IMG/VR virus record: IMGVR_UViG_3300035212_002004
Coordinates: 40,100 to 104,099 of that record
Direction: 5' to 3' (one strand)
DNA from: a virus
Taxonomy: Duplodnaviria > Heunggongvirae > Uroviricota > Caudoviricetes
DNA: 64,000 nt
The position numbers were made by a program, and so were the translations under genes. The notes below the pieces were generated by a model. That model did not search any database. It had not been told where the DNA came from and saw only the letters and a list, made by a program, of their open reading frames with translations. Of this stretch, positions 2,452 through 40,132 are shown one piece after another (the first letter of the stretch is position 1; each line of letters starts with the position of its first letter).

Positions 2452-3363
2452 CTATTTTAATTGGTTTAAAAACTCATCTACTACTGATTGAAATCTTTCT
2501 GCTACTTCAATTTTTAAATTAACAGCATCTTGAATTCTTGCTTGACGTTTTTCTTCAAACTCATGTTGAGCGTTACGTTCTTCTCCAGCCCATTTATCGT
2601 AAGCTAGTTTATAAGTATTTGCTGCTTCTGCATTCTCAGTATTTACTCTTGCTTGAATAATTCCTCTTTCTTTCTGAATTCTGGCATTCTCAGAAGTAGT
2701 AGCATTTTTAATCTTAGATTTAAAGTAATTTACTTTTTGTTCATATCCTCTGTGCAGAGCTGCTAATTCTTCATGAATTAAAAGCAACTGTGATGGGGTA
2801 TGATGAATTGAGATTTTCATAGGGGTTTTCTTTCCTACTTCAATTTCCATAAACTCTAAAGTTTTAATGGTAGGAAGTTCTGCTCTTAATCTATCCAATT
2901 TACCTCCTTTATGAATAAATTGCCCAATATGTGAAGCATAAGCCTCTGCTTCTAAGAATTCGTTGTACTCGGCTGTAGTTAAAGTATTCCAACCAAAATC
3001 CTCATCCACTTCACTTGGAATTGTTTCCGATATAAGTTTTGGTCTCTCTGGGGATTCTACTTCGTATTTGAATCGTTCTTGTTTGATTTTATTAATCAAC
3101 TCGTCCTTAGCTTTGATGTTCTCCATCAAGAATGCTTGAGTAGCAGATAATCTTGCTTTAGCAGTTAATAATTCAACTACATTTTCTGGAATTGGGTTTC
3201 CTTTAACTTCAGTATAGGTTTCTTCTCCTATCACTAGTTCTTTAGAAACGTTATTGATATCAGCTAATTGTGCTGTAAGATCTTTTGAACGTTGGTTACA
3301 CAAGTTTGAGATTGATTGTGCTTGAGACATTGATAACCCTTTTGATGCTAACGAATTTTTCAT
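2452..3363 (-). CDS. Hypothetical coiled-coil-rich protein
   Basis: 303 aa ORF rich in helical E/K/A/Q segments. Confidence 0.8.
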   Translation of the reverse strand: MKNSLASKGLSMSQAQSISNLCNQRSKDLTAQLADINNVSKELVIGEETYTEVKGNPIPENVVELLTAKARLSATQAFLMENIKAKDELINKIKQERFKYEVESPERPKLISETIPSEVDEDFGWNTLTTAEYNEFLEAEAYASHIGQFIHKGGKLDRLRAELPTIKTLEFMEIEVGKKTPMKISIHHTPSQLLLIHEELAALHRGYEQKVNYFKSKIKNATTSENARIQKERGIIQARVNTENAEAANTYKLAYDKWAGEERNAQHEFEEKRQARIQDAVNLKIEVAERFQSVVDEFLNQLK

Positions 3364-3375
3364 AACTATGATTTT

Positions 3376-3771
3376 TTATTTATTTTTAATGATTTCTATT
3401 AATTTTTTAAGACATTCAAGTTCTGCTTCTTCGTAAGATTTAAAATCTGTTTCTAATTCAGATATTGATTGAGAATGATTTATTATTTGATAATCACAAT
3501 TAACATCATTTTCTAATGAATTGTCTAATCCTATTGAATGATATAAACCATACTTCTCTCTAAACCAACTAAATGCTTGTTGGTATAATGGTGCTGAAAC
3601 TACTATACTTGATGAATTGTGATTAAATAGAATTGGTTTAGGATTAATACAATCACTATTCATTATTGCATAATCACCTAACAATGGGTCAAAATATCCA
3701 AAACAAGGTTCATCAAATCCTAATTCTTTTAAAATTAATGCTTGTTCGTAAGGTGCAAATTCTTTTTCCAT
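3376..3771 (-). CDS. Hypothetical phage protein (paralogue of 651-1046)
   Basis: 131 aa; shared N-terminal and WFREK motifs. Confidence 0.8.
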   Translation of the reverse strand: MEKEFAPYEQALILKELGFDEPCFGYFDPLLGDYAIMNSDCINPKPILFNHNSSSIVVSAPLYQQAFSWFREKYGLYHSIGLDNSLENDVNCDYQIINHSQSISELETDFKSYEEAELECLKKLIEIIKNK

Positions 3772-3780
3772 AACTATTTT

Positions 3781-3823
3781 TTCTTATACTTTAATATACG
3801 AACTATATTTCTAATATCCAACT
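3781..3823 (-). promoter_or_regulatory. Bacteroidota-type (-33 TTG / -7 TAnnTTTG-like) early promoter, exact copy at 5898-5940
   Basis: Minus strand AGTTGGATATTAGAAATATAGTTCGTATATTAAAGTATAAGAA: TTG, 20 nt, TATATTAA; identical 43-bp copy at 5898-5940. Confidence 0.7.
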
Positions 3824-4284: not shown

Positions 4285-4314
4285 AACTTTTATTTTTTAT
4301 TGGATAAAATATTG

Positions 4315-4386
4315 TGGTCTCGGGGAATTACGATATCCCAGCCTCTTTCTTATGAGGAAATTGCTCTACCTTTGAGCTACGAGACC
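4315..4386 (-). tRNA. tRNA with CAT anticodon (elongator Met or Ile2), non-canonical T-loop
   Basis: Acceptor GGTCTCG/CGAGACC, D-arm GCTC/GAGC, loop CT-CAT-AA, T-loop ATCGTAA. Confidence 0.75.
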
Positions 4387-4392
4387 AATTAG

Positions 4393-4463
4393 TTGCGGAT
4401 TCAGGACTCGAACCTGGCCTCTGGGTTATGAGCCCGGAATGCTACCAATTACACCAAACCGCG
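4393..4463 (-). tRNA. tRNA-fMet (CAT)
   Basis: C1:A72 mismatch, three consecutive G-C pairs in the anticodon stem (GGG/CCC), loop CT-CAT-AA, TTCGAGT T-loop. Confidence 0.9.
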
Positions 4464-4564
4464 ATGTATGCTTTAATGAAAAGAGGTAAGCTACTTCAGT
4501 TATCTGCGTTTACTGAGTATTTAAAGCCGTCATTGGCAAAGTGGCTACTTACTTATTCATTTTG

Positions 4565-4635
4565 CGGTCTAGAACGGTAACGCTCCGTCTACTCAACAGT
4601 GACAGTGTTGGATGATACTTCTTCACTACTAGACC
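4565..4635 (-). tRNA. tRNA-Asp (GTC), non-canonical T-loop
   Basis: GGTCTAG/CTAGACC acceptor, G73, CAACA-CTGTCAC-TGTTG anticodon arm, T-loop AGCGTTA. Confidence 0.85.
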
Positions 4636-4639
4636 TTTT

Positions 4640-4714
4640 TGGTGGAGCTACCGAGATTCGAACTCGGAATAATAGAATGCAAATCTATCGTGATGCCAAT
4701 TTCACTATAGCCCC
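4640..4714 (-). tRNA. tRNA-Ala (TGC)
   Basis: G3:U70 pair, ATAGA-TTTGCAT-TCTAT arm, encoded CCA. Confidence 0.92.
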
Positions 4715-4720
4715 TTTTGT

Positions 4721-4790
4721 AGCCCTGCCGGGAGTCGAACCCGACTTTTATGGATGAAAACCATATGTCCTAACCGATAGACGACAGGGC
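4721..4790 (-). tRNA. tRNA-Glu (TTC)
   Basis: TATGG-TTTTCAT-CCATA arm, canonical T-arm. Confidence 0.9.
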
Positions 4791-4792
4791 CG

Positions 4793-4867
4793 TGGAGCAG
4801 ATGCGGAGAATCGAACTCCGATCTTCTGGTTGGAAGCCAAAAGTAATAACCATTATACGACATCTGC
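4793..4867 (-). tRNA. tRNA-Gly (TCC)
   Basis: GCAGATG/CATCTGC acceptor, loop CT-TCC-AA, encoded CCA. Confidence 0.92.
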
Positions 4868-4873
4868 ATTTTG

Positions 4874-4947
4874 AGGTTCTTGTCAGGATCGAACTGACTC
4901 TATTCAGCGTTACAAATGCTGTGCACCACCACTTATGCGTAAGAACC
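4874..4947 (-). tRNA. tRNA-Thr (TGT)
   Basis: GGTTCTT/AAGAACC acceptor, loop TT-TGT-AA, T-arm GTCAG-TTCGATC-CTGAC. Confidence 0.85.
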
Positions 4948-4953
4948 AAGTAA

Positions 4954-5020
4954 ATTACAGCCGGTTTTCGTATCCGTTCTCCTACTGCCAAGCAGGTGCT
5001 TTGCTATAAGCTAGCTGTAA
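4954..5020 (-). ncRNA. Degenerate tRNA-like RNA (6-nt anticodon loop TTGGCA)
   Basis: Perfect 7-bp acceptor TTACAGC/GCTGTAA, D-stem GCTT/AAGC, stem CCTGC/GTAGG with a 6-nt loop, degenerate T-arm CGGATACGAAAACCG. Confidence 0.55.
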
Positions 5021-5107
5021 CTTTTTTATGTAGGCGACTAGAACTCCAGTCCTTCTGTCCAATTAAGGAACTCATATCCGGTAACCCGGTCCTACTATAT
5101 TCTACTG

Positions 5108-5187
5108 TACCCAAGGGGGGAGTCGAACCCCCAAGCTTACGCCACGGCTTCTAAGACCGCTGTGTCTACCAGTTCCACCACTCGGGC
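5108..5187 (-). tRNA. tRNA-Leu (TAG)
   Basis: Loop CT-TAG-AA, Leu-type D-loop, variable arm, canonical T-arm. Confidence 0.92.
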
Positions 5188-5413
5188 ATTTACCGCATGT
5201 GCGGTCACTTATCAATCGGTAGCTCCCTCTTGATGTCCATCTGTGGGTGTAACACATTTGGTAGAGGGTCGAACCTTAAATATCGTATCATGAAGCATTT
5301 TTGATATTGTTGAATATGCTATATCCAACTTTCTTGCTTTTATGATTATAATTTCTTTATCTTTCATACTTAAATATACGAACTATATTTTTACTATCCT
5401 AGCTTTTTTTAAT

Positions 5414-5497
5414 TTACTTTTAATCTTAATTGCCATCATTTATTTTAATTCCAAAAAATATAAAGACTACAGCCACAATTATAAAACATACTATCAT
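5414..5497 (-). CDS. Possible small hydrophobic peptide (27 aa)
   Basis: MIVCFIIVAVVFIFFGIKIMMAIKIKK, a single TM-like segment between tRNAs; below the ORF-track cutoff. Confidence 0.35.
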
Positions 5498-5511
5498 AAT
5501 TTATTTTTTTG

Positions 5512-5584
5512 AGGGACTATAAAGAATCGAACTTTACAATCTATTCGTTTGCTGCGAATAAGCTTAACCATCAGCCTTAGTCCC
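5512..5584 (-). tRNA. tRNA-Cys (GCA) with A33
   Basis: GGGACTA/TAGTCCC acceptor, U73, anticodon loop CA-GCA-AA, canonical T-arm. Confidence 0.75.
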
Positions 5585-5663
5585 ATTTATCACCTAGCCT
5601 GACCTTCCAGACAGTACAAGTCAGTATTAATTTCACGTGCTGTTTTGTAGTAGGTGATTTATT

Positions 5664-5891
5664 TTATTTATTCAGATCTTGTATAATAGGTCCTAAATCT
5701 TTTACAGGTATCTTACAATCCTCTTGACCTTCTCCTTCTGAGTTTCTCCACATATAGTTGTAAACTGCTTTTGTTTTTCTTTCCATCTCAAATGTAAAGT
5801 ATAGGTTTGGAGTTTCTAATTCATATACATTCCAATCATCTCCTCTTCCGTCAGTATATTGATTTACTAATTTAAAATCTGTTATTTTCAT
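5664..5891 (-). CDS. Hypothetical protein
   Basis: 75 aa ORF directly behind the 5898-5940 promoter. Confidence 0.7.
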   Translation of the reverse strand: MKITDFKLVNQYTDGRGDDWNVYELETPNLYFTFEMERKTKAVYNYMWRNSEGEGQEDCKIPVKDLGPIIQDLNK

Positions 5892-5927
5892 ATTTCTTTC
5901 TTATACTTTAATATACGAACTATATTT

Positions 5928-6626
5928 CTAATATCCAACTATTTTGTTAGATTTTTTTAAATTATCTTTTTTCCACAATGGTTGATAATTACTATAATGA
6001 TTTAATCTTACAATATCTTCCTCTGTTTGAGCTGAAGAGATTGGTATTTTATGATCTAATTCCCATTGACCATAATTGTAAATAGTCATACCTTCTTGAA
6101 ATAAGTTCTGAATATGTTCTGTAAATTCTAATAGAGTGCATCCTAGTATTTCTTCAGTTCCTATACTTTTTCTATAAGTACCATTGCAGCTCCTTTTGAA
6201 TGAACCTCCTATTAAACTTCTTGTATTATATATTAATTTATAAATTGGATCTACTTTTTTTCGTTCCCTATGATAATTTACATAATATCCAGGATTCCTT
6301 TCATTCCAACTACTCTTTTTCTCTCTAGGTTTTTTAATAACCTCTTTTTTAGGTCTAGGATGAGTTTTATAGTACTCTCTTTGCCTTAACTTTATCTCCT
6401 CTTTATTTTGTTGGTAATTTAACCTATCTCTTTCTCTTTGCTTATCCCTATTAGCATCTCTATACTCTTCTCCATATTTTTGTAGAGATTCTTTATTATC
6501 CTCTTTCCATCTTGCAGTTTCTATTTTTCTACAAGCTCTGCAGGTATAGTCGTAGTTATTAAATACAGATTTTGATATGTTAATTCCTACTTCTAATTCT
6601 ACTTTACACTTTATACACTCTTTCAT
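5928..6626 (-). CDS. HNH-type putative homing endonuclease
   Basis: N-terminal CxxC..CxxC; C-terminal GCT..F..HI...GMT..NYG.WELDHKIP...NYQPLW..DN..KSNK; paralogue of 18754-19425 and 54541-55089. Confidence 0.85.
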   Translation of the reverse strand: MKECIKCKVELEVGINISKSVFNNYDYTCRACRKIETARWKEDNKESLQKYGEEYRDANRDKQRERDRLNYQQNKEEIKLRQREYYKTHPRPKKEVIKKPREKKSSWNERNPGYYVNYHRERKKVDPIYKLIYNTRSLIGGSFKRSCNGTYRKSIGTEEILGCTLLEFTEHIQNLFQEGMTIYNYGQWELDHKIPISSAQTEEDIVRLNHYSNYQPLWKKDNLKKSNKIVGY

Positions 6627-6637
6627 ATTAAAATAAA

Positions 6638-6733
6638 AGGAGAAATTAAAGAAAACACATGGTACGTGCTAAGCTCTAAAATCTCCTATAATGTTTTTAT
6701 TGAACAGTACCATTGTTCATTTAATATAAATAT
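6638..6733 (-). promoter_or_regulatory. Structured 5' leader (two hairpins with complementary 7-nt loops) plus ATATTTAT motif
   Basis: Minus strand TGAACA-ATGGTAC-TGTTCA and AGGAGA...AGCAC-GTACCAT-GTGTT...TCTCCT just before the ATG. Confidence 0.6.
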
Positions 6734-6763
6734 CACAAAATATAGGAAACCTTAATATATTTT

Positions 6764-7270
6764 TTAAAAGAATAGGAAAGCTTCCCATTCCTTAGGTACA
6801 TAGTTTAAGGTTTTTAAGAGCATTAGGTAATGAGGTCTTTTTGGTTCTGGAATTTCCTTTCCATATTCCTCAAGAGTTAAATCTGCTTTAGCTCCATTAC
6901 AAGATCTACATGCTGTTACTAAATTGTCCCAAGCATTTTCTCCACCTTTTGATTGTGGAATGACATGGTCAAGTGTTAATGACTTTATGTTACTTGATCC
7001 GCAATAAACACATTCATAATTATCCCTTCGATAAACATTTTCTCTCGTTAGAGGAACTTTTTGAATGTTTTGTTTTACATATTTAAAAACCCTAATGATT
7101 GAAGGTTTAAAAATTTCTAGTTTTGGATTTACTAATCCGAATGTTTCTGGATGTTCAGCTATTATTTCTGCATTACCCTTATACGAAATCACGAAAGCTC
7201 TTTCGGTAGAGATGATGCTTCTTGCCATAAAGCTTGAATCAATTACCAGTGTTCTTTGGTACTTACTCAT
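6764..7270 (-). CDS. HNH endonuclease (McrA-like), inside the tRNA array
   Basis: RENVYRRDNYECVYCG...LTLDHVIPQSKGG...NLVTACRSCNGAK; likely start MSKYQR at 7270 (ORF track starts at 7294). Confidence 0.88.
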   Translation of the reverse strand: MSKYQRTLVIDSSFMARSIISTERAFVISYKGNAEIIAEHPETFGLVNPKLEIFKPSIIRVFKYVKQNIQKVPLTRENVYRRDNYECVYCGSSNIKSLTLDHVIPQSKGGENAWDNLVTACRSCNGAKADLTLEEYGKEIPEPKRPHYLMLLKTLNYVPKEWEAFLFF

Positions 7271-7303
7271 GATTTTAATTTTTAAATGAAACAATTTATT
7301 TTG

Positions 7304-7374
7304 CGCAGGCCGTAAGAATCGAACTTACCCGTAGCAGTTTTGGAGACCGTACCGACACCTTGTCTGTGACCTGC
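7304..7374 (-). tRNA. tRNA-Trp (CCA)
   Basis: GCAGGTC/GGCCTGC acceptor, loop CT-CCA-AA, short D-arm. Confidence 0.85.
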
Positions 7375-7468
7375 ATTTGTAGAGTATCGCTTACTCTACC
7401 AAAGTTGATCAGACTTCTTTAATAGCTCTTTAAGTTGTTACCATCTGTCTATCCATGCGATTTTTTTG

Positions 7469-7541
7469 TACCCCTAGAAGAATTCGAATCTCCATTTTAC
7501 ATCTTAGAAGGATGTTGCATTTCCATTTATGCTATAAGGGC
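7469..7541 (-). tRNA. tRNA-Arg (TCT)
   Basis: ACATC-CTTCTAA-GATGT arm. Confidence 0.9.
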
Positions 7542-7547
7542 ATTTTG

Positions 7548-7619
7548 AGGTCCTACCAGAACTCGAATCTGGATTCTATCGTTCGTAGCGATAAGTTTTT
7601 CCAATTAAACTATAAGACC
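7548..7619 (-). tRNA. tRNA-Arg (ACG)
   Basis: TATCG-CTACGAA-CGATA arm. Confidence 0.92.
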
Positions 7620-7686
7620 AGACTGTAGGATATCGCTTAACCTACGAAGTTGATCACACTTCTTTTCTATACGAACGATTTTTTTG

Positions 7687-7759
7687 TATCCCTGACTGGA
7701 GTCGAACCAGCAGCTTACGAGGCTTAAACTCGTTGTGTTTACCATTTCACCACAGGGAT
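7687..7759 (-). tRNA. tRNA-Leu (TAA) lacking the long variable arm
   Basis: ATCCCTG/CAGGGAT acceptor, A73, ACGAG-TTTAAGC-CTCGT arm, variable region only AAGCT. Confidence 0.8.
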
Positions 7760-7854
7760 GTAAAGCCAATCCCGTAGATTGGCAGCTCAACTTTAGGCAT
7801 TGAGTTTGCAAGAACTAGTCTCTGGCCAAGTCAATCTCCCTTTGGGAGTTGTCG

Positions 7855-7927
7855 TGTGAAAGGTGGGACTCGAACCCACAATCTCCTGAATCACAATCAG
7901 ACGCTTTACCATTCAGCTACAATCACC
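7855..7927 (-). tRNA. tRNA-His (GTG)
   Basis: Extra 5' G(-1), loop TT-GTG-AT, canonical T-arm; position 73 reads A. Confidence 0.88.
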
Positions 7928-7934
7928 ATGTTAG

Positions 7935-8003
7935 TACCGAGTGTTGGATTCGAACCAACCTAAGGGCGGATATGAGCCATCCTTGATCCCAAGCTCCCTC
8001 GGT
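7935..8003 (-). tRNA. tRNA with CAT anticodon (elongator Met or Ile2), short D-arm
   Basis: ACCGAG/CTCGGT acceptor, loop CT-CAT-AT, T-arm GTTGG-TTCGAAT-CCAAC. Confidence 0.7.
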
Positions 8004-8008
8004 AATTA

Positions 8009-8073
8009 AAAGTAACGTAGGACTCGAACCTACTCATGCCAAGTTAATAGCAATTATCCACCATGCATTACTT
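8009..8073 (-). ncRNA. Degenerate tRNA-like RNA
   Basis: 7-bp acceptor AAGTAAT/GTTACTT and canonical T-arm GTAGG-TTCGAGT-CCTAC; anticodon stem TGCTA/TGGCA closes a 6-nt loop TTAACT; no clear D-arm. Confidence 0.55.
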
Positions 8074-8076
8074 TTG

Positions 8077-8159
8077 AGGAAAGAATGAGAATCGAACTCA
8101 ATCCAATTACGAACGTCTCGCTTAGCAGGCGGACTCAACACCATGTTGATTTACTTTCC
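8077..8159 (-). tRNA. tRNA-Ser (GCT)
   Basis: Loop CT-GCT-AA, long variable region, canonical T-arm. Confidence 0.85.
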
Positions 8160-8165
8160 ATTTTG

Positions 8166-8237
8166 TACTCCTAGGAAGAATTGAACTTCCATTTCATCCT
8201 TATCAGAGATGTGTGCTAACCATTCTACTATAGGAGC
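8166..8237 (-). tRNA. tRNA-Ile (GAT)
   Basis: CATCT-CTGATAA-GGATG arm. Confidence 0.92.
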
Positions 8238-8359
8238 AATTTGTAACGTTTAATCTGATAACCTTACGAAGAGTTGTTCCTTATTAATCCAATTGTAATG
8301 TTAGTTGTTGGAGGGAAAGTTACACATCTAAACCCGTCAGGAGATACTAACACCCCTTG

Positions 8360-8431
8360 CTCCTCCCCTAGGACTCGAACCTAGATAAGATGATTAACAG
8401 TCATCCGTAATAACCTTTATACGAGAGAGGA
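8360..8431 (-). tRNA. tRNA-Asn (GTT)
   Basis: GATGA-CTGTTAA-TCATC arm, G73. Confidence 0.92.
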
Positions 8432-8437
8432 ATTTTG

Positions 8438-8606
8438 AGCCACATAACAGGAATCGAACCTGTCTGCTGAATCTTGTCAAATACTCTCATCTTGTCGACC
8501 TTTCAGAGGCATATTCTATTTAACCCTTTATGATCTTCCACCCTACGTCTAGGACAGTCCATACATAATTGACTAAAAGATCCAGTCGTCACCGTTGACT
8601 ATGGAC
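8438..8606 (-). ncRNA. tRNA-shaped RNA with a ~100-nt insertion in the anticodon loop
   Basis: D-stem GTC/GAC, anticodon-type stem GGATCTT/AAGATTC, 5-nt variable loop, canonical T-arm ACAGG-TTCGATT-CCTGT, bulged acceptor, 3' N73-CA like neighbouring tRNAs. Confidence 0.65.
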
Positions 8607-8613
8607 TTGTTTG

Positions 8614-8686
8614 TGGACCCTGTAGGAATCGAACCTACTCCTCTAGTTCTTCAGACTAGCGTACGCACCAGCTATACCAAAGGTCC
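8614..8686 (-). tRNA. tRNA-Phe (GAA)
   Basis: CTAGT-CTGAAGA-ACTAG arm. Confidence 0.92.
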
Positions 8687-8699
8687 AAGGTTAATAAAG

Positions 8700-8770
8700 T
8701 GGGGCCAGTAGGAATCGAACCTACCCAGTGAGCTTTTACAGAGCTGCTCGGCACCTTGCCTGTTGTCCCC
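8700..8770 (-). tRNA. tRNA-Tyr (GTA) lacking the long variable arm
   Basis: Loop CT-GTA-AA, G1:C72, A73, variable region only 5 nt. Confidence 0.8.
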
Positions 8771-8816
8771 AATTACACTTTCCAATTAAATCTGTATAAG
8801 TGTGAAACCCTCTTCG

Positions 8817-8887
8817 TACCTCGTAGTGGAATCGAACCACTGCCATTTCCATGTAAAAGAAATACGCTTCCATTACGCCAACGAGGC
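8817..8887 (-). tRNA. tRNA-Val (TAC)
   Basis: TTTCT-TTTACAT-GGAAA arm, canonical T-arm. Confidence 0.9.
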
Positions 8888-8934
8888 AAATGCACTTCCT
8901 GTTCTCTACGGTATAGTATAGTGCTAACCATTTG

Positions 8935-9005
8935 TACCCCCTGAAGGTAATGCTCCTTCTTCCCGATATTAAAAGTATCGTGCTTCACTTTAAAGCCTAG
9001 AGGGC
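8935..9005 (-). tRNA. tRNA-Lys (TTT), non-canonical T-loop
   Basis: CGATA-CTTTTAA-TATCG arm; T-arm GAAGG-AGCATTA-CCTTC. Confidence 0.85.
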
Positions 9006-9068
9006 AAATTTAATTCTATGCGTCGGTGCTTATTAGGCGGTGATCTATGAATTAGTAACAGTCTCTCG

Positions 9069-9139
9069 TCTAATAGTTAGGATTCGAACCTAAGTACTGC
9101 TCAGTCCAAGTGAGCCATGAAACCGTGCTTCGCTACTAG
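9069..9139 (-). tRNA. tRNA-Pro (TGG)
   Basis: C1:G72, GCTCA-CTTGGAC-TGAGC arm, canonical T-arm. Confidence 0.88.
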
Positions 9140-9150
9140 AAATTTATTTG

Positions 9151-9221
9151 TTGCCCATGAAGGTAACGCTCCTTCTCCGCATGTGTCAAAGACATGTGTA
9201 CTACTTTTATACGAACGGGCA
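9151..9221 (-). tRNA. tRNA-Gln (TTG), non-canonical T-loop
   Basis: TGCCCGT/ATGGGCA acceptor, CATGT-CTTTGAC-ACATG arm, T-loop AGCGTTA. Confidence 0.85.
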
Positions 9222-9226
9222 CAATG

Positions 9227-9667
9227 CTATTTTAAATTATGTTTTATTTTTAATCTATGGACTCTATTGTAATTATCACCTTTTGGAGATAAACCAGCAT
9301 CTCTTAATATGTCAGCTATACTTCCTCCTTTTTTTATAGATTCAATTAATACATCTTCATGCACCCATTTAGTATGGGTTTCTTTTTTATAGTTTTTAGA
9401 TCTAAAAGTTGATGTTTGTGAATGACAATTAGGACACATATATCTTAAATTCCCTCTAGTATTATTATGTTTATCACCATCTATATGGTCTAATTCTAAT
9501 AAAAGAGGTTTTTCATTCCATTCTTCTAATATTCCACATTCTACACATTTAGGTTCTCCTAACCATTTATCTTTTTTTAACCAGTCTCTAAAAGCAGGAA
9601 CAAATGTTATTGTCATTTCCCCATTTAATATTTTTTCAATATTATTTTTAATATCAGTACGTTTCAT
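9227..9667 (-). CDS. HNH endonuclease inside the tRNA array
   Basis: CVECG...LELDHIDGDKHNN...NLRYMCPNCHSQT; likely start MKRTDIK at 9667 after an ATATTTAT motif (the ORF-track start at 9751 lies inside tRNA-Ser). Confidence 0.88.
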   Translation of the reverse strand: MKRTDIKNNIEKILNGEMTITFVPAFRDWLKKDKWLGEPKCVECGILEEWNEKPLLLELDHIDGDKHNNTRGNLRYMCPNCHSQTSTFRSKNYKKETHTKWVHEDVLIESIKKGGSIADILRDAGLSPKGDNYNRVHRLKIKHNLK

Positions 9668-9726
9668 ATAATATATTTGATAATAAATATTACATCGTCT
9701 TAAAGACTTAAACATACTTTTAATAG

Positions 9727-9810
9727 AAGAGAGTGTGGGACTCGAACCCACAACGGTTTAACCCGCTACGACTTTTCAAGAGTCGCTCTTGATCCAGCCA
9801 GATACTCTCC
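9727..9810 (-). tRNA. tRNA-Ser (TGA)
   Basis: CGACT-CTTGAAA-AGTCG arm, long variable arm GCGGGTTAAACCGT. Confidence 0.9.
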
Positions 9811-9898
9811 ATCTTATTCTATCCAATATGTCAATGAACTACTTATTTTTCTTATGCTTCAATATACGAACCCTTTTTACGGTATCCAAATCTTTTGT

Positions 9899-9931
9899 AA
9901 AAAAAACTCGAATCTTTTTATTTGATCCGAG
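9899..9931 (-). terminator. Intrinsic terminator
   Basis: CTCGGATC-AAATAAAAA-GATTCGAG hairpin followed by T8. Confidence 0.75.
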
Positions 9932-10153: not shown

Positions 10154-10414
10154 TTACCCTTTTAATAATTTTTTCTTATCTTTACTTTTAGCTAACCTAC
10201 TATCTAGGTACTGAATGGTGTCTACATGAAGTCTGTCAGTTCGATCTATTTCTTGATCAATTCTACGATTCACTAATTCATCATTTTTGTAAAGGGTATT
10301 AATAATCTCTGTTTCATTACCTTTTAAAGCAGTTACTTGCTTTGATACCTTGTTTAGTTTTACTCCTTGGTAAACTAAGGTGATAATTGCTGCACCTAAT
10401 AAAAATTCTGTCAT
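10154..10414 (-). CDS. Hypothetical protein, N-terminal TM plus coiled coil
   Basis: 86 aa ORF. Confidence 0.7.
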   Translation of the reverse strand: MTEFLLGAAIITLVYQGVKLNKVSKQVTALKGNETEIINTLYKNDELVNRRIDQEIDRTDRLHVDTIQYLDSRLAKSKDKKKLLKG

Positions 10415-10436
10415 AATAATTTGATTTTAGAATTAG

Positions 10437-10535
10437 AGCTAAGGCCGGACTCGAACCGGATACCGTTTCATTTAAAACGGACTAGACAACCATTTGACTG
10501 GATTCGGAAACCATTCCTCATTACGCCCACTTAGC
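10437..10535 (-). ncRNA. tRNA-like RNA (99 nt) without a canonical anticodon arm
   Basis: Acceptor GCTAAG/CTTAGC, T-arm CCGG-TTCGAGT-CCGG, three small internal hairpins. Confidence 0.6.
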
Positions 10536-10540
10536 TTTTT

Positions 10541-10627
10541 GGAATCGGTGAGGGATTCGAACCCTCATCTGGACTTACCGTCCATGTTAACCCTAGCAGG
10601 TATGCTCCTGTTGACACCAACCGATTC
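10541..10627 (-). ncRNA. tRNA-like RNA (87 nt), 8-bp acceptor, long variable arm, poorly paired anticodon arm
   Basis: GAATCGGT/ACCGATTC, T-arm GAGGG-TTCGAAT-CCCTC, variable arm TGGAC-GGTAA-GTCCA, CT-GCT-AG loop without a proper stem. Confidence 0.6.
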
Positions 10628-10632
10628 TTTTT

Positions 10633-10790
10633 TTACCAACCTTGGTCTTTCTTGTAGCCTTCCGAGTTATCAGTTACGGGGCTTGTACAAGATCAGGGTT
10701 TCTGATTAATGATTTGCTTGTACTCTAGATTACTATAAACCCTTTTTCATCCGTTTAGCATCATCATTAATTAACAGCGAGCATTGGTAA
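10633..10790 (-). ncRNA. Candidate pseudoknotted ncRNA (~160 nt)
   Basis: Closing stem TTACCAA/TTGGTAA; interleaved stems TTAATGAT/ATCATTAA and AGGGTTT/AAACCCT. Confidence 0.5.
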
Positions 10791-10794
10791 TTTG

Positions 10795-10899
10795 TAGTCA
10801 GGACAGGAATCGAACCTGTATACCTCGTTTATCTGTTGGAACGAGTACTCCCAATGGTTGCGACCCATACACTGCGTTTCCCATTTTCGCCACCTGACT
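10795..10899 (-). ncRNA. tRNA-like RNA (105 nt) with extended anticodon and variable arms
   Basis: AGTCAGG/CCTGACT acceptor, A73, D-stem GCG/CGC, ATGG-GTCGCAA-CCAT hairpin, CTCGTT/AACGAG arm, canonical T-arm. Confidence 0.65.
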
Positions 10900-11024
10900 A
10901 TTTTATAAAACATTCCAGCCACATTGGGAGAGCCGCAGTTCCCACGTTGTTTAAAGACTTTCTTGGCGGACCTATCTACTGGGGTGTGTTTTACTTATAC
11001 TTAAATATACGAACTTTAGTTTAA

Positions 11025-11312
11025 TTATCCAACTTCTTTGGACATTTTTTCTAACATTTCGTAAGTTTTTTCAAAAATATCTGGTTTACATGGATAAAAT
11101 TCTCCTTGTACTCCTTTTATGATAAAATCACCTACACTAGCTGTCATATCTCCTTCTAGAGTTTCGATTGTAATTTTTCCTGATGGATTACCTTCTTCAG
11201 GACTTGTTTTAGTCCTGATTGAGGTTTTCATAAATTCAGCTATTTCTCCTTGATTTGTTCCATCCCATCGAACTGCTTCAATTACAACTGGTTTCTTTCT
11301 GTAGAGAGCCAT
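11025..11312 (-). CDS. Conserved phage protein (YRKKPVVIEA...TLEG...GDFII.G..GEFYPCKPDIF type)
   Basis: Recognisable motif pattern of a common small phage protein; function unknown. Confidence 0.8.
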   Translation of the reverse strand: MALYRKKPVVIEAVRWDGTNQGEIAEFMKTSIRTKTSPEEGNPSGKITIETLEGDMTASVGDFIIKGVQGEFYPCKPDIFEKTYEMLEKMSKEVG

Positions 11313-11710
11313 TAAAAACTTACTGTTGAAAGTACTTTAATAATAGTAAATTCAGGATCAAAATCTTTGTCTAATTGTTTTGCAACTAATAAATCGATTG
11401 ATGTTCCGTTTTTTTGCTCAACCCATAACTCTTTTACAAATTCTGAAGATGTTACTTCATTTTTGTCGTTTCTTCCTACTGTAAATACAGCTACTTTTAC
11501 TTGTTTGCTCATGTTTTTTATTGGTGTTACGGCTGTTGATAAGCCTAAATTATTTGAATAATTAATTGTTGAATTTCCTGATAGGGTTAATCCTGAATTG
11601 GGGTGGGATACTGTAAGTATTGAGTTAGGATTAGTACATCCCATTCCTATTGTTCCTGAGTATCCAACTGTTGTTCCGGTTGTTCCTAGCCAACTTTGTG
11701 TTTCGTTCAT
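11312..11710 (-). CDS. Hypothetical protein
   Basis: 132 aa ORF overlapping its neighbours by 1-4 nt. Confidence 0.7.
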   Translation of the reverse strand: MNETQSWLGTTGTTVGYSGTIGMGCTNPNSILTVSHPNSGLTLSGNSTINYSNNLGLSTAVTPIKNMSKQVKVAVFTVGRNDKNEVTSSEFVKELWVEQKNGTSIDLLVAKQLDKDFDPEFTIIKVLSTVSF

Positions 11711-12138
11711 AATTTTAGATAATCTTTTAAATTAATATTTTGTGTTTTTTCTTGATAATGAAAATCTGTATGGCAATTTCTACAAAGCACTTTACATTTC
11801 CGTATTTCAGTTTTAATAATATTTAAAGTGTAAGTTTTAAAATATGGTAAAGCATGTTCTTTAGTATCAGGATCTATATGGTGAAAATCTAAAACCCAAA
11901 ATCTTTTTTCTCCACATTTTTGGCACCCACAATACTTTTTGTACCTATTCATAAATTCTTGACCTCTATTATAACTCTTTTTACTAGCCTTTATTTGATA
12001 CTTTTTATAAACATCACTATTAGCTTTATTATGTATAGCATTATAAGAATGTTGACATAATTTACATTTACCTCCACCTTTATAAAAATCGGTTAATGGT
12101 TTAGTTTCATTACAAGAAGGGCATTTTTTATTATTCAT
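11707..12138 (-). CDS. HNH-type putative homing endonuclease
   Basis: CPSC..CKLC zinc ribbon; CGCQKCG...LDFHHIDP...KCKVLCRNCH. Confidence 0.82.
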   Translation of the reverse strand: MNNKKCPSCNETKPLTDFYKGGGKCKLCQHSYNAIHNKANSDVYKKYQIKASKKSYNRGQEFMNRYKKYCGCQKCGEKRFWVLDFHHIDPDTKEHALPYFKTYTLNIIKTEIRKCKVLCRNCHTDFHYQEKTQNINLKDYLKL

Positions 12139-12150
12139 AATTTACATTTT

Positions 12151-12183
12151 AGGTCCGGTTATAAATATTAAGAAACCGGACCT
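12151..12183 (-). terminator. Hairpin after queC with the ATATTTAT motif in its loop
   Basis: AGGTCCGGTT/AACCGGACCT 10-bp stem; loop contains ATATTTAT (12161-12168). Confidence 0.55.
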
Positions 12184-12191
12184 TTTGTAAA

Positions 12192-13067
12192 TTATTTTAT
12201 ATGGTTTTCTAAAACTTGAGCAACATGATCCCTAGCAATTTCCCAACTTACAGGACCTTCTTCAAGGTTCGCATAAGCAACTGGATCTTTTCTTCCTAGT
12301 TTAATAAATGCTTCGATACGTTCTACTGAAGATGCTGATTTATAATCTGAGAACCATTCTCCTGTCCAAACATTAAATTCTTTACCTGGGAATTGTCCTT
12401 CTTTCCAGGGTTTATATCCCTCAATCCAAATTGGCTTATAAGAAGTATTAGTTCTCGAATAAACTTCATCAAAATCTAATCCTAATTCTCTACACAATAC
12501 CTCTCCATCTTTTAAGATATCGAATTTATCTCCTTCTAAATAAGGTGTAAAATAACCTACTCTTTCAGCTTCCCAATTTCCTAATCTAAAAGCTGTATCA
12601 TCAGCATCTCTAAACTCTTGTCTACAATCAGGATAAATTGCATGATCACCAGCATGAATACCTAAAGCAATATCACAAGTTTCTCCTGTTCTATTTGCAA
12701 CTGATAAAGCTACTGCTTGAGAAATTGAAGCAAATATTTTGTTTCTATTAGGAACAACTGTTGCTTTCATATTATCTTCTGCATAATGACCTTCAGGTAC
12801 ATCTTCACCTCCTGTTACTAAAGCTGAATCTAATAAATCAACTAATCCATCTAGTTTAATTTGACGATAACGTAATTCAGTCTGTGATGATGATTCCTCT
12901 CCAATATAGTTTACTAAGGATTGAGCTCTCTCTAGCTCTACTCTGTGTTTTTGACCGTAATCAAAGCTAATAGCAGTGACTGTGTCATACTCTTTTAGAC
13001 ATCTAAGCAATAATGTGCTTGAGTCCATTCCTCCACTTAAGGATACTACAACATGTTTTTTAGACAT
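12192..13067 (-). CDS. queC: 7-cyano-7-deazaguanine synthase QueC
   Basis: SGGMDS PP-loop, FDYGQKH, VPNRN, GIHAGDHAIYPDCR motifs. Confidence 0.93.
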   Translation of the reverse strand: MSKKHVVVSLSGGMDSSTLLLRCLKEYDTVTAISFDYGQKHRVELERAQSLVNYIGEESSSQTELRYRQIKLDGLVDLLDSALVTGGEDVPEGHYAEDNMKATVVPNRNKIFASISQAVALSVANRTGETCDIALGIHAGDHAIYPDCRQEFRDADDTAFRLGNWEAERVGYFTPYLEGDKFDILKDGEVLCRELGLDFDEVYSRTNTSYKPIWIEGYKPWKEGQFPGKEFNVWTGEWFSDYKSASSVERIEAFIKLGRKDPVAYANLEEGPVSWEIARDHVAQVLENHIK

Positions 13068-13474: not shown

Positions 13475-14269
13475 TTATATTTTACCATTATTACAAAATT
13501 CTTTAAATTTATTTACATTAAATATAATATCTTCTAATTGAGAAGACAAATCTTTTTCCATAAACTCTTCAATTTTATTTGATGGTTTTTCTAATAAACC
13601 TATGTCAGTATATCTTTTACCTAAAGCCCCACAAATAATTGGATTTGAAGTATCAACTGAATTAATTAAATTAGGTTGAGCGTCTCTATAGTAAGTAAAT
13701 TCTTGAGGTGTTGATGCTCCTAATAAATGAATATAATGATGATCTTTTATTACATTTTGAGATAATAAAAATTGAATTAATAATACTCTACCAACAGATT
13801 GATTAGCTAGTACATTTTCAGAACCACCTAATTCTTGATATACAACAGAAGAATGGTTAAAAGCAAAATGAGTATAGCCTAAATCAACACATTGTTGATA
13901 TAGAGTATGAATTTCACTTACCGTTTTTCCCTGCAATACAACCATTAATTTAGTTTTAAATGGTAGTTTATATTGGGTCCAATGTTTTGCGTTTTTAGCT
14001 GTAAGATCACGTTCATTCCACTCATCAGGTACAATAAATATATTTGGTTCAATTAGATTTATTTTTTCTAATAAATCTTTAGTAGTATGTGAATATCCTT
14101 CAAATAAAGAGTTATCCATAATAATAAATCTATCTCTTTCTTTTTGATCTAAAAAATACTGTCTATATTCTGGGTACTTATCCATAAAAATAGGGAGACA
14201 ATAATCAAAATCTGACCATTCATTATTGTACTCAAATAAAGAGATTGGAACTTCATGTGAAATTTTCAT
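13475..14269 (-). CDS. TGT-fold protein, candidate DpdA-like 7-deazaguanine transglycosylase
   Basis: IIMDNS, IHLLGA and SVDTS motifs match the order of TGT-family DSG, HLxG and DS motifs; adjacent to queC. Confidence 0.6.
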   Translation of the reverse strand: MKISHEVPISLFEYNNEWSDFDYCLPIFMDKYPEYRQYFLDQKERDRFIIMDNSLFEGYSHTTKDLLEKINLIEPNIFIVPDEWNERDLTAKNAKHWTQYKLPFKTKLMVVLQGKTVSEIHTLYQQCVDLGYTHFAFNHSSVVYQELGGSENVLANQSVGRVLLIQFLLSQNVIKDHHYIHLLGASTPQEFTYYRDAQPNLINSVDTSNPIICGALGKRYTDIGLLEKPSNKIEEFMEKDLSSQLEDIIFNVNKFKEFCNNGKI

Positions 14270-39643: not shown

Positions 39644-40132
39644 TTAGAAGTTTAAGATACAATAATCCATTGCTAATGTACAGTTAATTTCTGCTGCTGC
39701 TTCACCTTGTGACCAATCATAATCACCAAATGTCGCTGATTTGATAAATGCACCTTTTATGATCCATTCACCAACTACGTCACCTACAGGTCCTAGAACA
39801 TTCAATGTGATGTCTTTTTTATAGAAATCTGAGTATCCATCTCTACCTGTTACAGATTCGTGAGATAAACGCATCCATTCCATTACTGCTTGTGAACCTG
39901 CTGGAGCAATTGGATCATATAATGATAATGTAATATCGTTCCATTTTACTTTACCTTTTATTTTACGGTAAACATTGATGTGATCAAGTGTGATTTCACC
40001 AGCATCGAATCCAGGAGCCGAAGCTTTCTTAATCATATAAGCTGGGATTCCTTCTATATACATTATAAACCTATTTGATACTTTAGGTTCGAAAGCCGTA
40101 AACATAATCTCATTAGGGTTTAATACTGCCAT
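39644..40132 (-). CDS. Tail tube protein (T4 gp19-like)
   Basis: FEPK..NRF, W..IT..LYDPI, W......TGRDGY...YKKD, W...GAF; likely start MAVLNP at 40132. Confidence 0.9.
   Translation of the reverse strand: MAVLNPNEIMFTAFEPKVSNRFIMYIEGIPAYMIKKASAPGFDAGEITLDHINVYRKIKGKVKWNDITLSLYDPIAPAGSQAVMEWMRLSHESVTGRDGYSDFYKKDITLNVLGPVGDVVGEWIIKGAFIKSATFGDYDWSQGEAAAEINCTLAMDYCILNF

Follow-up and report, generated by a model that had tools for sequence, protein, structure and literature searches.

Three putative tRNA-framed, non-decoding small RNAs ahead of the tRNA array of a phage related to Flavobacterium phage immuto

Introduction

What are three small RNA genes that carry the acceptor stem and T arm of a transfer RNA (tRNA) around an unfamiliar middle, if they are not tRNAs? 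This question is raised by a locus next to the tRNA array of an uncultured phage (Caudoviricetes). The stretch of DNA that we analyzed (the window) is 64,000 nucleotides (nt) long and covers positions 40,100 to 104,099 of the IMG/VR record IMGVR_UViG_3300035212_002004, a record of 168,099 bp with direct terminal repeats; all the window features described below lie on its minus strand. The genes are RNA 1 (10795-10899, 105 nt), RNA 2 (10541-10627, 87 nt) and RNA 3 (10436-10536, 101 nt). A first-pass annotation, made from the letters alone, had already put them there, and we corrected only the ends of RNA 3 (10536-10436), which is one base longer on each side. It had read the three as tRNA mimics that could act as decoys for host anticodon nucleases or tRNA-sensing defence, or as ligands of tRNA-binding proteins.

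To our knowledge, stable RNAs from phage tRNA clusters, namely species 1 and 2 of T4 and RNA1, RNA2 and RNA3 of T5, have been known for fifty years and nobody has found their job. Our literature searches found no published description of the families reported here. Our results suggest, with a probability that we put at roughly 0.55, that the three genes encode non-decoding, tRNA-framed small RNAs of three separate conserved phage families.

A tRNA frame around three different cores

Reading the sequences, we found in all three RNAs a perfect 7- or 8-bp acceptor, U8, a GG in the D region and a T arm with a TTCGA loop. A conserved anticodon arm (5-bp stem and 7-nt loop, 1 nt past the D stem) was found in none of them. 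The earlier description of a kept acceptor and textbook T arm with a rebuilt middle thus agrees with our reading of each RNA, and the relatives described below back it by covariation in RNA 1 and RNA 3 and by two variable hairpins, P3 and P4, in RNA 2. RNA 1 and RNA 2 are also flanked like the true tRNAs of the phage, by an A-rich 5' sequence and an N73-C-AAA trailer; RNA 3 has the 5' flank alone. A whole-window Rfam scan at the gathering score did not detect the three RNAs, and searches of Rfam at the gathering score and at E values up to 10 returned nothing beyond weak matches of the tRNA clan. Since single-sequence folding was unremarkable for RNA 1 and RNA 3, the case rests on their relatives, which are given below by the numbers of their loci (L001 and so on).

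RNA 1 was delimited by a local Rfam scan, its relatives and covariation. Its shell is of the leucine-tRNA type, with a 7-bp acceptor (AGTCAGG/CCTGACT), U8, a 3-bp D stem with a GG loop, a T arm and discriminator A, and it surrounds an insert of 54 nt, which consists of a 4-bp stem and its 7-nt loop, a conserved linker of 8-9 nt and a 6-bp hairpin. In the local scan it scored 37.3 bits on the tRNA model RF00005 (cut-off 29) with a 41-nt middle skipped. The insert occurs in eight more contigs (L145-L152), in one of them (L149) within a different shell. Across five variants the part from the 4-bp stem and 7-nt loop through the linker is identical, and the 6-bp hairpin, the T stem and the acceptor vary by compensatory pairs (the latter two in L149 and L152). 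Altogether 98.6% of the positions predicted to pair were paired in the family, seven pairs were altered on both sides, and none of 500 shuffles scored as high. The invariance of the core is partly by construction, as the search pattern fixed 20 nt of it; the flanking bases and the covarying stems were not fixed. A wider search for the insert with another loop gave no new members.

The part of RNA 1 that most resembles an anticodon arm has four pairs plus a U-U, begins 4 nt past the D stem and is followed by ~33 nt. Its 7-nt loop, with U at position 2 and A at position 6, is invariant in the five variants, the loop being fixed by the search pattern. The first-pass annotation had described an elongated anticodon arm here; relatives do not retain the extension on which this was based (AGU/ACU). 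Five of the six relative loci that we scanned, a set without L147 and L151, hold no ordinary tRNA, so RNA 1 also exists as a lone gene.

The frame of RNA 1 belongs to a larger family, not in Rfam, that we call the AGTCAGG shell family and recognize by a D arm of the form AGTCAGG-UG-GCG...CGC and by an ACAGG T arm followed by CCUGACU-A. RNA 1 shares its acceptor, D stem, T arm and discriminator A; its D loop departs from the consensus, and its insert is a small family of its own that is also found in the shell of L149. RNA 2 is not a member. The 24-nt 3' end of the shell was found in at least 119 viral contigs, and the loci that we fetched hold 208 copies (154 unique) of 69-200 nt. In most copies the acceptor is the same and the D arm is of the type found in bacterial leucine tRNAs; the constant ends enclose ~125 unrelated clusters of inserts, and the sequence adjoining the D arm and the T arm varies among members. 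A few members of 69-90 nt are ordinary tRNAs (Lys, Pro, Ile). One of 90 nt (L080) was called tRNA-Leu by ARAGORN and has, by sequence reading, a UAA anticodon loop, which suggests that the shell was derived from a phage tRNA-Leu. Against cultured phages, BLAST with the shell 3' end gave generic T-arm matches alone. The 24-mer is present in only 16 of 185,579 species genomes, always in contigs of metagenome-assembled genomes; judged by this distribution the shell is phage-borne, and a host tRNA fragment or an integrase attachment site was rejected on the same count.

RNA 2 was delimited by a homolog in phage immuto, by 22 IMG/VR loci and by covariation. Its acceptor has 8 bp, or alternatively 7 bp and a G-1:C73 pair as in tRNA-His. 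The 5' part then comprises U8, a short D stem, the hairpin P3 inserted in the D loop and a conserved single strand with GGG, and the 3' part a 5-bp stub hairpin (P4) at the place of the anticodon arm, a variable loop of 3 nt and the T arm. The 25-nt 3' end was found in 22 IMG/VR viral contigs with nine distinct sequences, and in a structural alignment of these nine variants the 8-bp acceptor, the T arm and the elbow strand are invariant. P3 occurs in six and P4 in seven different sequences, always paired, and their loops (3-9 nt) show no conservation; since the two hairpins vary in this way, we consider RNA 2 to have no anticodon. The unpaired GCT noted at first does lie in the conserved single strand that holds the D-loop GG, but the triplet itself is not conserved and reads GCA or ACA in relatives. 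An acceptor-free search, in which RNA 2 could have had another acceptor, gave no further members.

The BLAST match to immuto has 81% identity over 112 nt, in a genome that is otherwise too diverged from ours for DNA matches. The homolog (L001:6004-6089; MW353175, 20246-20331) is annotated in GenBank as tRNA-Cys, ARAGORN makes no call on it, and the annotation looks wrong since the homolog has no anticodon arm. Relaxed ARAGORN reads the RNA 2 of our phage as 'Stop(tta)', in conflict with Cys in immuto, and the two triplets are non-homologous. In the local Rfam scan RNA 2 scored 22.2 bits on the tRNA-Sec model RF01852 (cut-off 47) and had no match to RF00005; a match to mascRNA was weak (19 bits, cut-off 42.5). 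We rejected tRNA-Sec, as the score is below the cut-off and RNA 2, which does have an 8/5 stack, has neither a UCA loop nor a 6-bp D stem.

RNA 3, delimited by six relatives and by covariation, has a 7-bp acceptor, U8, a GGCG/TGTC stem that closes a multiloop, a T arm and discriminator C. Within the multiloop lies a covarying hairpin whose loop contains an invariant GG that could plausibly replace G18-G19. Two loop versions, of 5 and 6 nt, occur in the last hairpin (4-6 bp), and these two lengths imply that this hairpin is not an anticodon arm. The three small hairpins first proposed for RNA 3 fared unevenly: the middle one (CCA/TGG) found no support, and the closing stem GGCG/TGTC was supported instead. 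On tRNA-Sec the RNA scored 17 bits (cut-off 47), and the local scan gave no match to RF00005. Its six relatives (L143, L144, L154-L157) conserve the middle and the T arm and have four different acceptor stems; the acceptor of L154 is the AGTCAGG of the shell family, which the RNA 3 of the window does not have. In L155 (8571-8671) the acceptor is eroded to four of seven pairs around an intact core, and the gene follows directly on a spacer-RNA end that is the same as that of the window. Pairing in the family reached 95.6%, with seven pairs altered on both sides and none of 500 shuffles as high. A kink-turn-like tandem G-A flank of the hairpin was dropped because it is broken in L156.

Exchange of the RNAs as cassettes

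The RNAs share their locus with two further conserved elements, the contents between which differ from relative to relative. RNA 1 is preceded by a leader of ~97 nt (10900-10996) with a hairpin (TGGGA...TCCCA), whose 3' end (TTTTATAAAA) is, according to the junctions in relatives, the insertion slot of the cassettes. Between RNA 1 and RNA 2 lies a structured spacer RNA of ~165 nt (10628-10794), recognized by blocks that are conserved in relatives and by replaceable inner segments. The leader is 96-100% identical in L005, L010, L011, L013, L015, L021 and L022, whose flanks are far more diverged, and it may be a functional RNA itself. In the spacer RNA, which ends in a hairpin followed by an A run, the 5' TTACCAA can pair with the 3' TTGGTAA as an alternative to the terminal hairpin.

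The slot between leader and spacer, occupied by RNA 1 in the window, is empty in L005, L022 and L010; it holds an unrelated 85-nt hairpin RNA in L004 and a ~190-nt RNA in L143, and in L006 RNA 2 follows the leader directly. In addition, L022 has a different shell RNA, of 142 nt, on the 3' side of RNA 2, and L143 has RNA 3 at the place of RNA 2. These contents indicate that the locus usually has RNA 2 and the spacer as its core, to which RNA 1 and RNA 3 are added as accessory modules. As far as can be read from the aligned loci, such presence or absence of whole cassettes is the opposite of the decay series expected of ordinary tRNAs; a decay of this kind, named at the outset as an outcome that would speak against tRNA mimics, was looked for in the relatives at these loci and none was seen.

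A working model and its alternatives

If the three genes do encode non-decoding, tRNA-framed small RNAs, a promoter of the phage would drive their synthesis as a single precursor made of the leader, RNA 1, the spacer RNA, RNA 2, RNA 3 and a small open reading frame (ORF). The acceptor, T and D parts that have been kept are the recognition elements of RNase P, of the 3' trimming and CCA-adding enzymes and of the enzymes that modify the T loop. Since the parts kept by every member are such maturation signals, and the flanks are like those of true tRNAs, we infer that the frame (acceptor and T-arm stack, U8, and a D-region GG locking onto the T loop) would serve as a handle for maturation and stability, by which RNase P, 3' trimming and CCA-adding enzymes of the host would cut out and cap each module as a stable RNA. 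The working part would be the core found in place of the anticodon and variable arms, which is specific to each family and would most likely bind a protein of the host or of the phage. This fits RNA 1 and RNA 3, in which the frame covaries and the core is fixed; in RNA 2 the working part may perhaps be the invariant acceptor and elbow. Related phages would gain, lose and swap the modules as cassettes.

Several observations weigh against this model. The folding energies of RNA 1 and RNA 3 are no better than those of shuffled sequences (z of -0.5 and -1.1), and the family alignments are small (6-9 distinct sequences), with parts of the conserved cores fixed by the search patterns. When neighbors were compared across independent contexts, no partner protein gene was consistently nearby; the sole recurring neighbor is a DUF5906/BT4734-like protein, which we read as a replication protein. 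The phage genome does not encode a CCA-adding enzyme, so maturation would depend on the host. The acceptor of RNA 2 never varies and its conserved part is the tRNA-like part, which fits poorly with a tRNA half that is only a frame; with its fixed acceptor and elbow, it is equally likely that RNA 2 is a top-half mimic, which would bind a synthetase, a processing enzyme or an acceptor-end toxin.

The model can be taken further, to a swappable phage library of tRNA-scaffolded, aptamer-like RNAs in which each core binds a different host factor and some members are also aminoacylated without decoding, RNA 1 by the leucyl-tRNA synthetase via A73 and its Leu-type D arm, and RNA 2 by the histidyl-tRNA synthetase via G-1:C73. 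We offer this extension tentatively, as a possibility we would not bet on; if true, synthetases, elongation factors or acceptor-end toxins could be occupied or diverted by the phage.

The behavior of RNA 2 also speaks for a different explanation, in which the RNAs sequester host factors as decoys or sponges and the variable lower half is just a strut. These factors would recognize the acceptor end or the elbow and not the anticodon; candidates are synthetases, tRNA-sensing defence proteins and toxins of the toxSAS or MenT type, which modify the CCA at the 3' end. The acceptor, T arm, U8 and GG elbow are indeed kept in all three RNAs, the nine variants of RNA 2 leave acceptor, T arm and elbow strand untouched as both lower hairpins change in sequence and loop, and a dedicated promoter-like motif lies ahead of the genes. 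We nevertheless hold this explanation to be rather unlikely, because in RNA 1 and RNA 3 the acceptor varies freely and the lower core is conserved in sequence, the opposite of what it predicts, and no defence or toxin partner was identified. An anticodon-nuclease decoy, one of the roles suggested in the first-pass annotation, is specifically unsupported. No anticodon loop is conserved as such in the three RNAs, the hairpin loops of RNA 2 and RNA 3 differ between relatives (3-9 nt), and the 15-mer of the RNA 1 arm occurs in one of 301 Bacteroidota genomes, the same as its reversed control, with no match to a host tRNA arm. A role as mere punctuation, with folds that exist only for RNase P and RNase Z to cut and so free the leader, the spacer RNA and the mRNA of the small ORF with defined ends, would suit the head-to-tail arrangement with other conserved RNA modules just 5' of an ORF and the tRNA-like flanks. 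For punctuation, however, the frame would suffice, yet the non-tRNA cores are conserved in sequence across distant contigs; moreover, the relatives of RNA 1 stand alone, without adjoining RNA modules or tRNAs, and RNA 1 and RNA 3 are absent from these junctions in close relatives of the phage. We therefore regard such a role as improbable.

That one or more of the RNAs are unusual decoding or aminoacylated tRNAs seems very improbable to us. RNA 1 would read GCG by a CGC loop with leucine identity, consistent with the U and A of its 7-nt loop, with A73 and with the Leu-type D arm, and RNA 2 would be charged by the histidyl-tRNA synthetase via the conserved G opposite C73. But the invariance of the RNA 1 loop was imposed by the search pattern, the linker before the arm has 4 nt instead of 1 and the arm itself has the irregular stem and long 3' continuation described above; the conflicting Stop(tta) and Cys calls on RNA 2 fall on non-homologous triplets, and genuine genes for tRNA-Ala, tRNA-Leu and tRNA-His lie downstream of the three RNAs. 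When introns were allowed, ARAGORN gave isotypes and intron sites that differ from shell to shell, by which intron-bearing tRNAs were ruled out for the shell RNAs. We give hardly any credence to decaying tRNA pseudogenes or intron-bearing tRNAs as a general explanation. The region is rich in tRNAs and has homing-endonuclease genes, and RNA 1 is above the Rfam tRNA cut-off; but helices are kept by compensatory changes, cores are conserved across unrelated contigs and relatives gain or lack whole cassettes instead of showing graded decay. A match to a known family such as an intron-bearing tRNA had been named beforehand as a refuting outcome, and in Rfam neither a group I intron nor any other family was matched. 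These results support the earlier view of the RNAs as tRNA look-alikes that are under selection and are not needed for reading codons.

Two more candidates were rejected. An antisense or guide function against the phage's own genome was dropped since the complementarity of the middles, the leader and the spacer does not exceed 11-13 nt, and transfer-messenger RNA (tmRNA) because ARAGORN made no tmRNA call and the RNAs, of 87-105 nt, have no G3:U70.

Relation to known RNAs

The window RNAs share the features by which phage tRNA-like stable RNAs can be recognized, namely a place in a phage tRNA cluster and a non-tRNA middle framed by a tRNA-like acceptor and T arm, and no known RNAs are closer than RNA1, RNA2 and RNA3 of T5 and species 1 and 2 of T4. 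The resemblance lies in the build: a distant BLAST of the 541-nt region against 50,697 phage records gave solely the RNA 2 homolog of immuto, and we found no homology to the T4 or T5 RNAs. In the T5 record (AY543070) RNA1 and RNA2 are entered as 'tRNA-like stable RNA with unknown functions' and RNA3 as 'putative tRNA-like RNA'. Like our RNAs, they are found in the tRNA region of a lytic phage, with HNH endonuclease genes beside them, and have an acceptor-like closing stem and a T arm around a long non-tRNA middle; T5 RNA1 has the leucine-tRNA-type D arm of the RNA 1 shell, together with a T arm and an insert of ~70 nt. They differ in length (125-144 nt), in the sequence of the inserts, which show no similarity, and in the host, Escherichia coli as opposed to Bacteroidota; furthermore, the T5 RNAs are annotated as stable in GenBank, whereas the three RNAs described here are predictions. 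The tRNA cluster of T4 ends with two small stable RNAs, species 1 and 2 (rnaC and rnaD; NC_000866, 70908-71171); in rnaC a closing stem encloses two large hairpins, and the T arm is a textbook one. In contrast with our RNAs, the acceptor of rnaC is imperfect, rnaD folds without a clear T arm, the pair lies at the tail of the array instead of its head, and there is no sequence similarity.

Y RNAs, among them the YrlA type, are ligands of Rsr/Ro60 proteins and likewise fuse a tRNA-like module of acceptor, T and D arms to a non-tRNA part; some Y RNAs are phage-encoded. The window RNAs, unlike these, have no long Ro-binding stem and no Rfam match beyond weak ones of the tRNA type. The suggestion that they resemble YrlA was not borne out: there was no Rfam match, and a TROVE/Ro protein (PF05731) was not found in the 168-kb phage genome, a host-encoded Ro being outside this search. 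A comparison in principle, without homology, can be drawn with mascRNA and with the engineered 'tRNA scaffold', in which an RNA of interest is placed in the anticodon arm of a tRNA and is then processed and stabilized by cells. RNAs of both kinds mature by RNase P, RNase Z and CCA addition, and both combine the top half of a tRNA with a stub or a foreign fold where the anticodon arm would be. Of the two, mascRNA comes from eukaryotes and the scaffold is a product of engineering, whereas the window RNAs are encoded by a phage.

The locus shows that tRNA-like stable RNAs are not oddities of two coliphages. One phage, probably of Bacteroidota, has three such families side by side, each conserved elsewhere and, by our reading, non-decoding and exchanged as cassettes. 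As the RNA 2 homolog belongs to a cultured pair, phage immuto on Flavobacterium sp. LMO8, the old question of what such RNAs do becomes directly testable. If a frame does carry a cargo in these RNAs, phages would have had the 'tRNA scaffold' trick long before RNA engineering, and they would be a large reservoir of small functional RNA folds that have not been catalogued.

Predicted transcription unit of the three RNAs

A consensus scan located a promoter-like motif (TTGGATA, a spacer and GTTCGTATATTTAAG) at 11000-11031, close to the 11001-11034 proposed earlier; it heads the unit and is kept in relatives. Its 15-nt core has five copies on the minus strand of the tRNA region (3789-3803, 5369-5383, 5906-5920, 9857-9871 and 11000-11014), against 0.02 expected, which suggests several transcription starts inside the tRNA array. 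At the other end of the unit, the ORF list gave an ORF of 86 amino acids (10154-10414) that begins 22 nt past RNA 3; part of it is kept at 83-91% in relatives, and a Pfam search gave no match. Further on lies a strong terminator-like hairpin (9899-9931), with an 8-bp stem, a 9-nt loop and a run of eight T, which we found by sequence reading and which aligns as the terminator part of an Rfam leader model. A second promoter-like motif (9857-9888), found by the consensus scan and the count of the core, stands ahead of tRNA-Ser and the main array. With this hairpin (9931-9899) and this motif between the RNAs and the array, the three RNAs form a unit of their own and are not, as had been thought, the first genes of the tRNA transcript.

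The phage and its tRNA array

The QueC protein of the phage has 76% identity to that of Flavobacterium phage immuto, and the gene order around the three RNAs is shared (QueC, small ORFs, a tRNA-like gene and then tRNAs). On these two grounds the phage is an uncultured relative of immuto, and its host is probably a Flavobacterium-type member of the Bacteroidota.

With default settings, ARAGORN found 18 tRNAs in the window (4314-9810), none of them one of the three RNAs, and a relaxed run added Thr, Ser(GCU), Lys and Gln. The array downstream of the three RNAs thus has 22 tRNAs for 18 amino acids plus a probable tRNA-Tyr (~22-23 for 18-19). The first-pass annotation had counted a full decoding set; the array is nearly full, but not demonstrably so. 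The probable tRNA-Tyr (8700-8770) has a GUA loop, is missed by ARAGORN and scores 27.1 bits in Rfam, just below the cut-off. The tRNA-Leu(UAA) at 7686-7759 is only 74 nt long and has no long variable arm, which is expected in a bacterial-type tRNA-Leu.

The array contains other tRNA-like elements. Between tRNA-His and tRNA-Ser(GCU), at 7927-8075, there are two modules (~8072-8008 and ~8003-7932), each with a 7-bp acceptor and a T arm and without a recognizable anticodon arm; relaxed ARAGORN called the first 'tRNA-??? (aa)'. An RNA of ~170 nt at 8432-8612 has a weak acceptor and a 3' T arm like that of the shell family (ACAGG...CCTGT). Outside the window and far from the array, a tRNA-like gene on the minus strand (G000:C1:155070-155155) scored 40.4 bits on the Rfam tRNA model and was called 'tRNA-??? 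(ag)' by ARAGORN; a second T-arm motif lies ~100 nt from it. ORFs for HNH endonucleases are found within or beside the region of tRNAs and tRNA-like genes (9227-9751, 6764-7294 and 11707-12138), as in T5, and these enzymes are possible drivers of the cassette exchange. In the locus L060 several shell RNAs are accompanied by a GOLLD RNA (317 bits), a tmRNA and a freshwater-1 RNA, at 11836-12243, 13561-13958 and 3348-3409, an instance of phage tRNA islands gathering many kinds of structured RNA.

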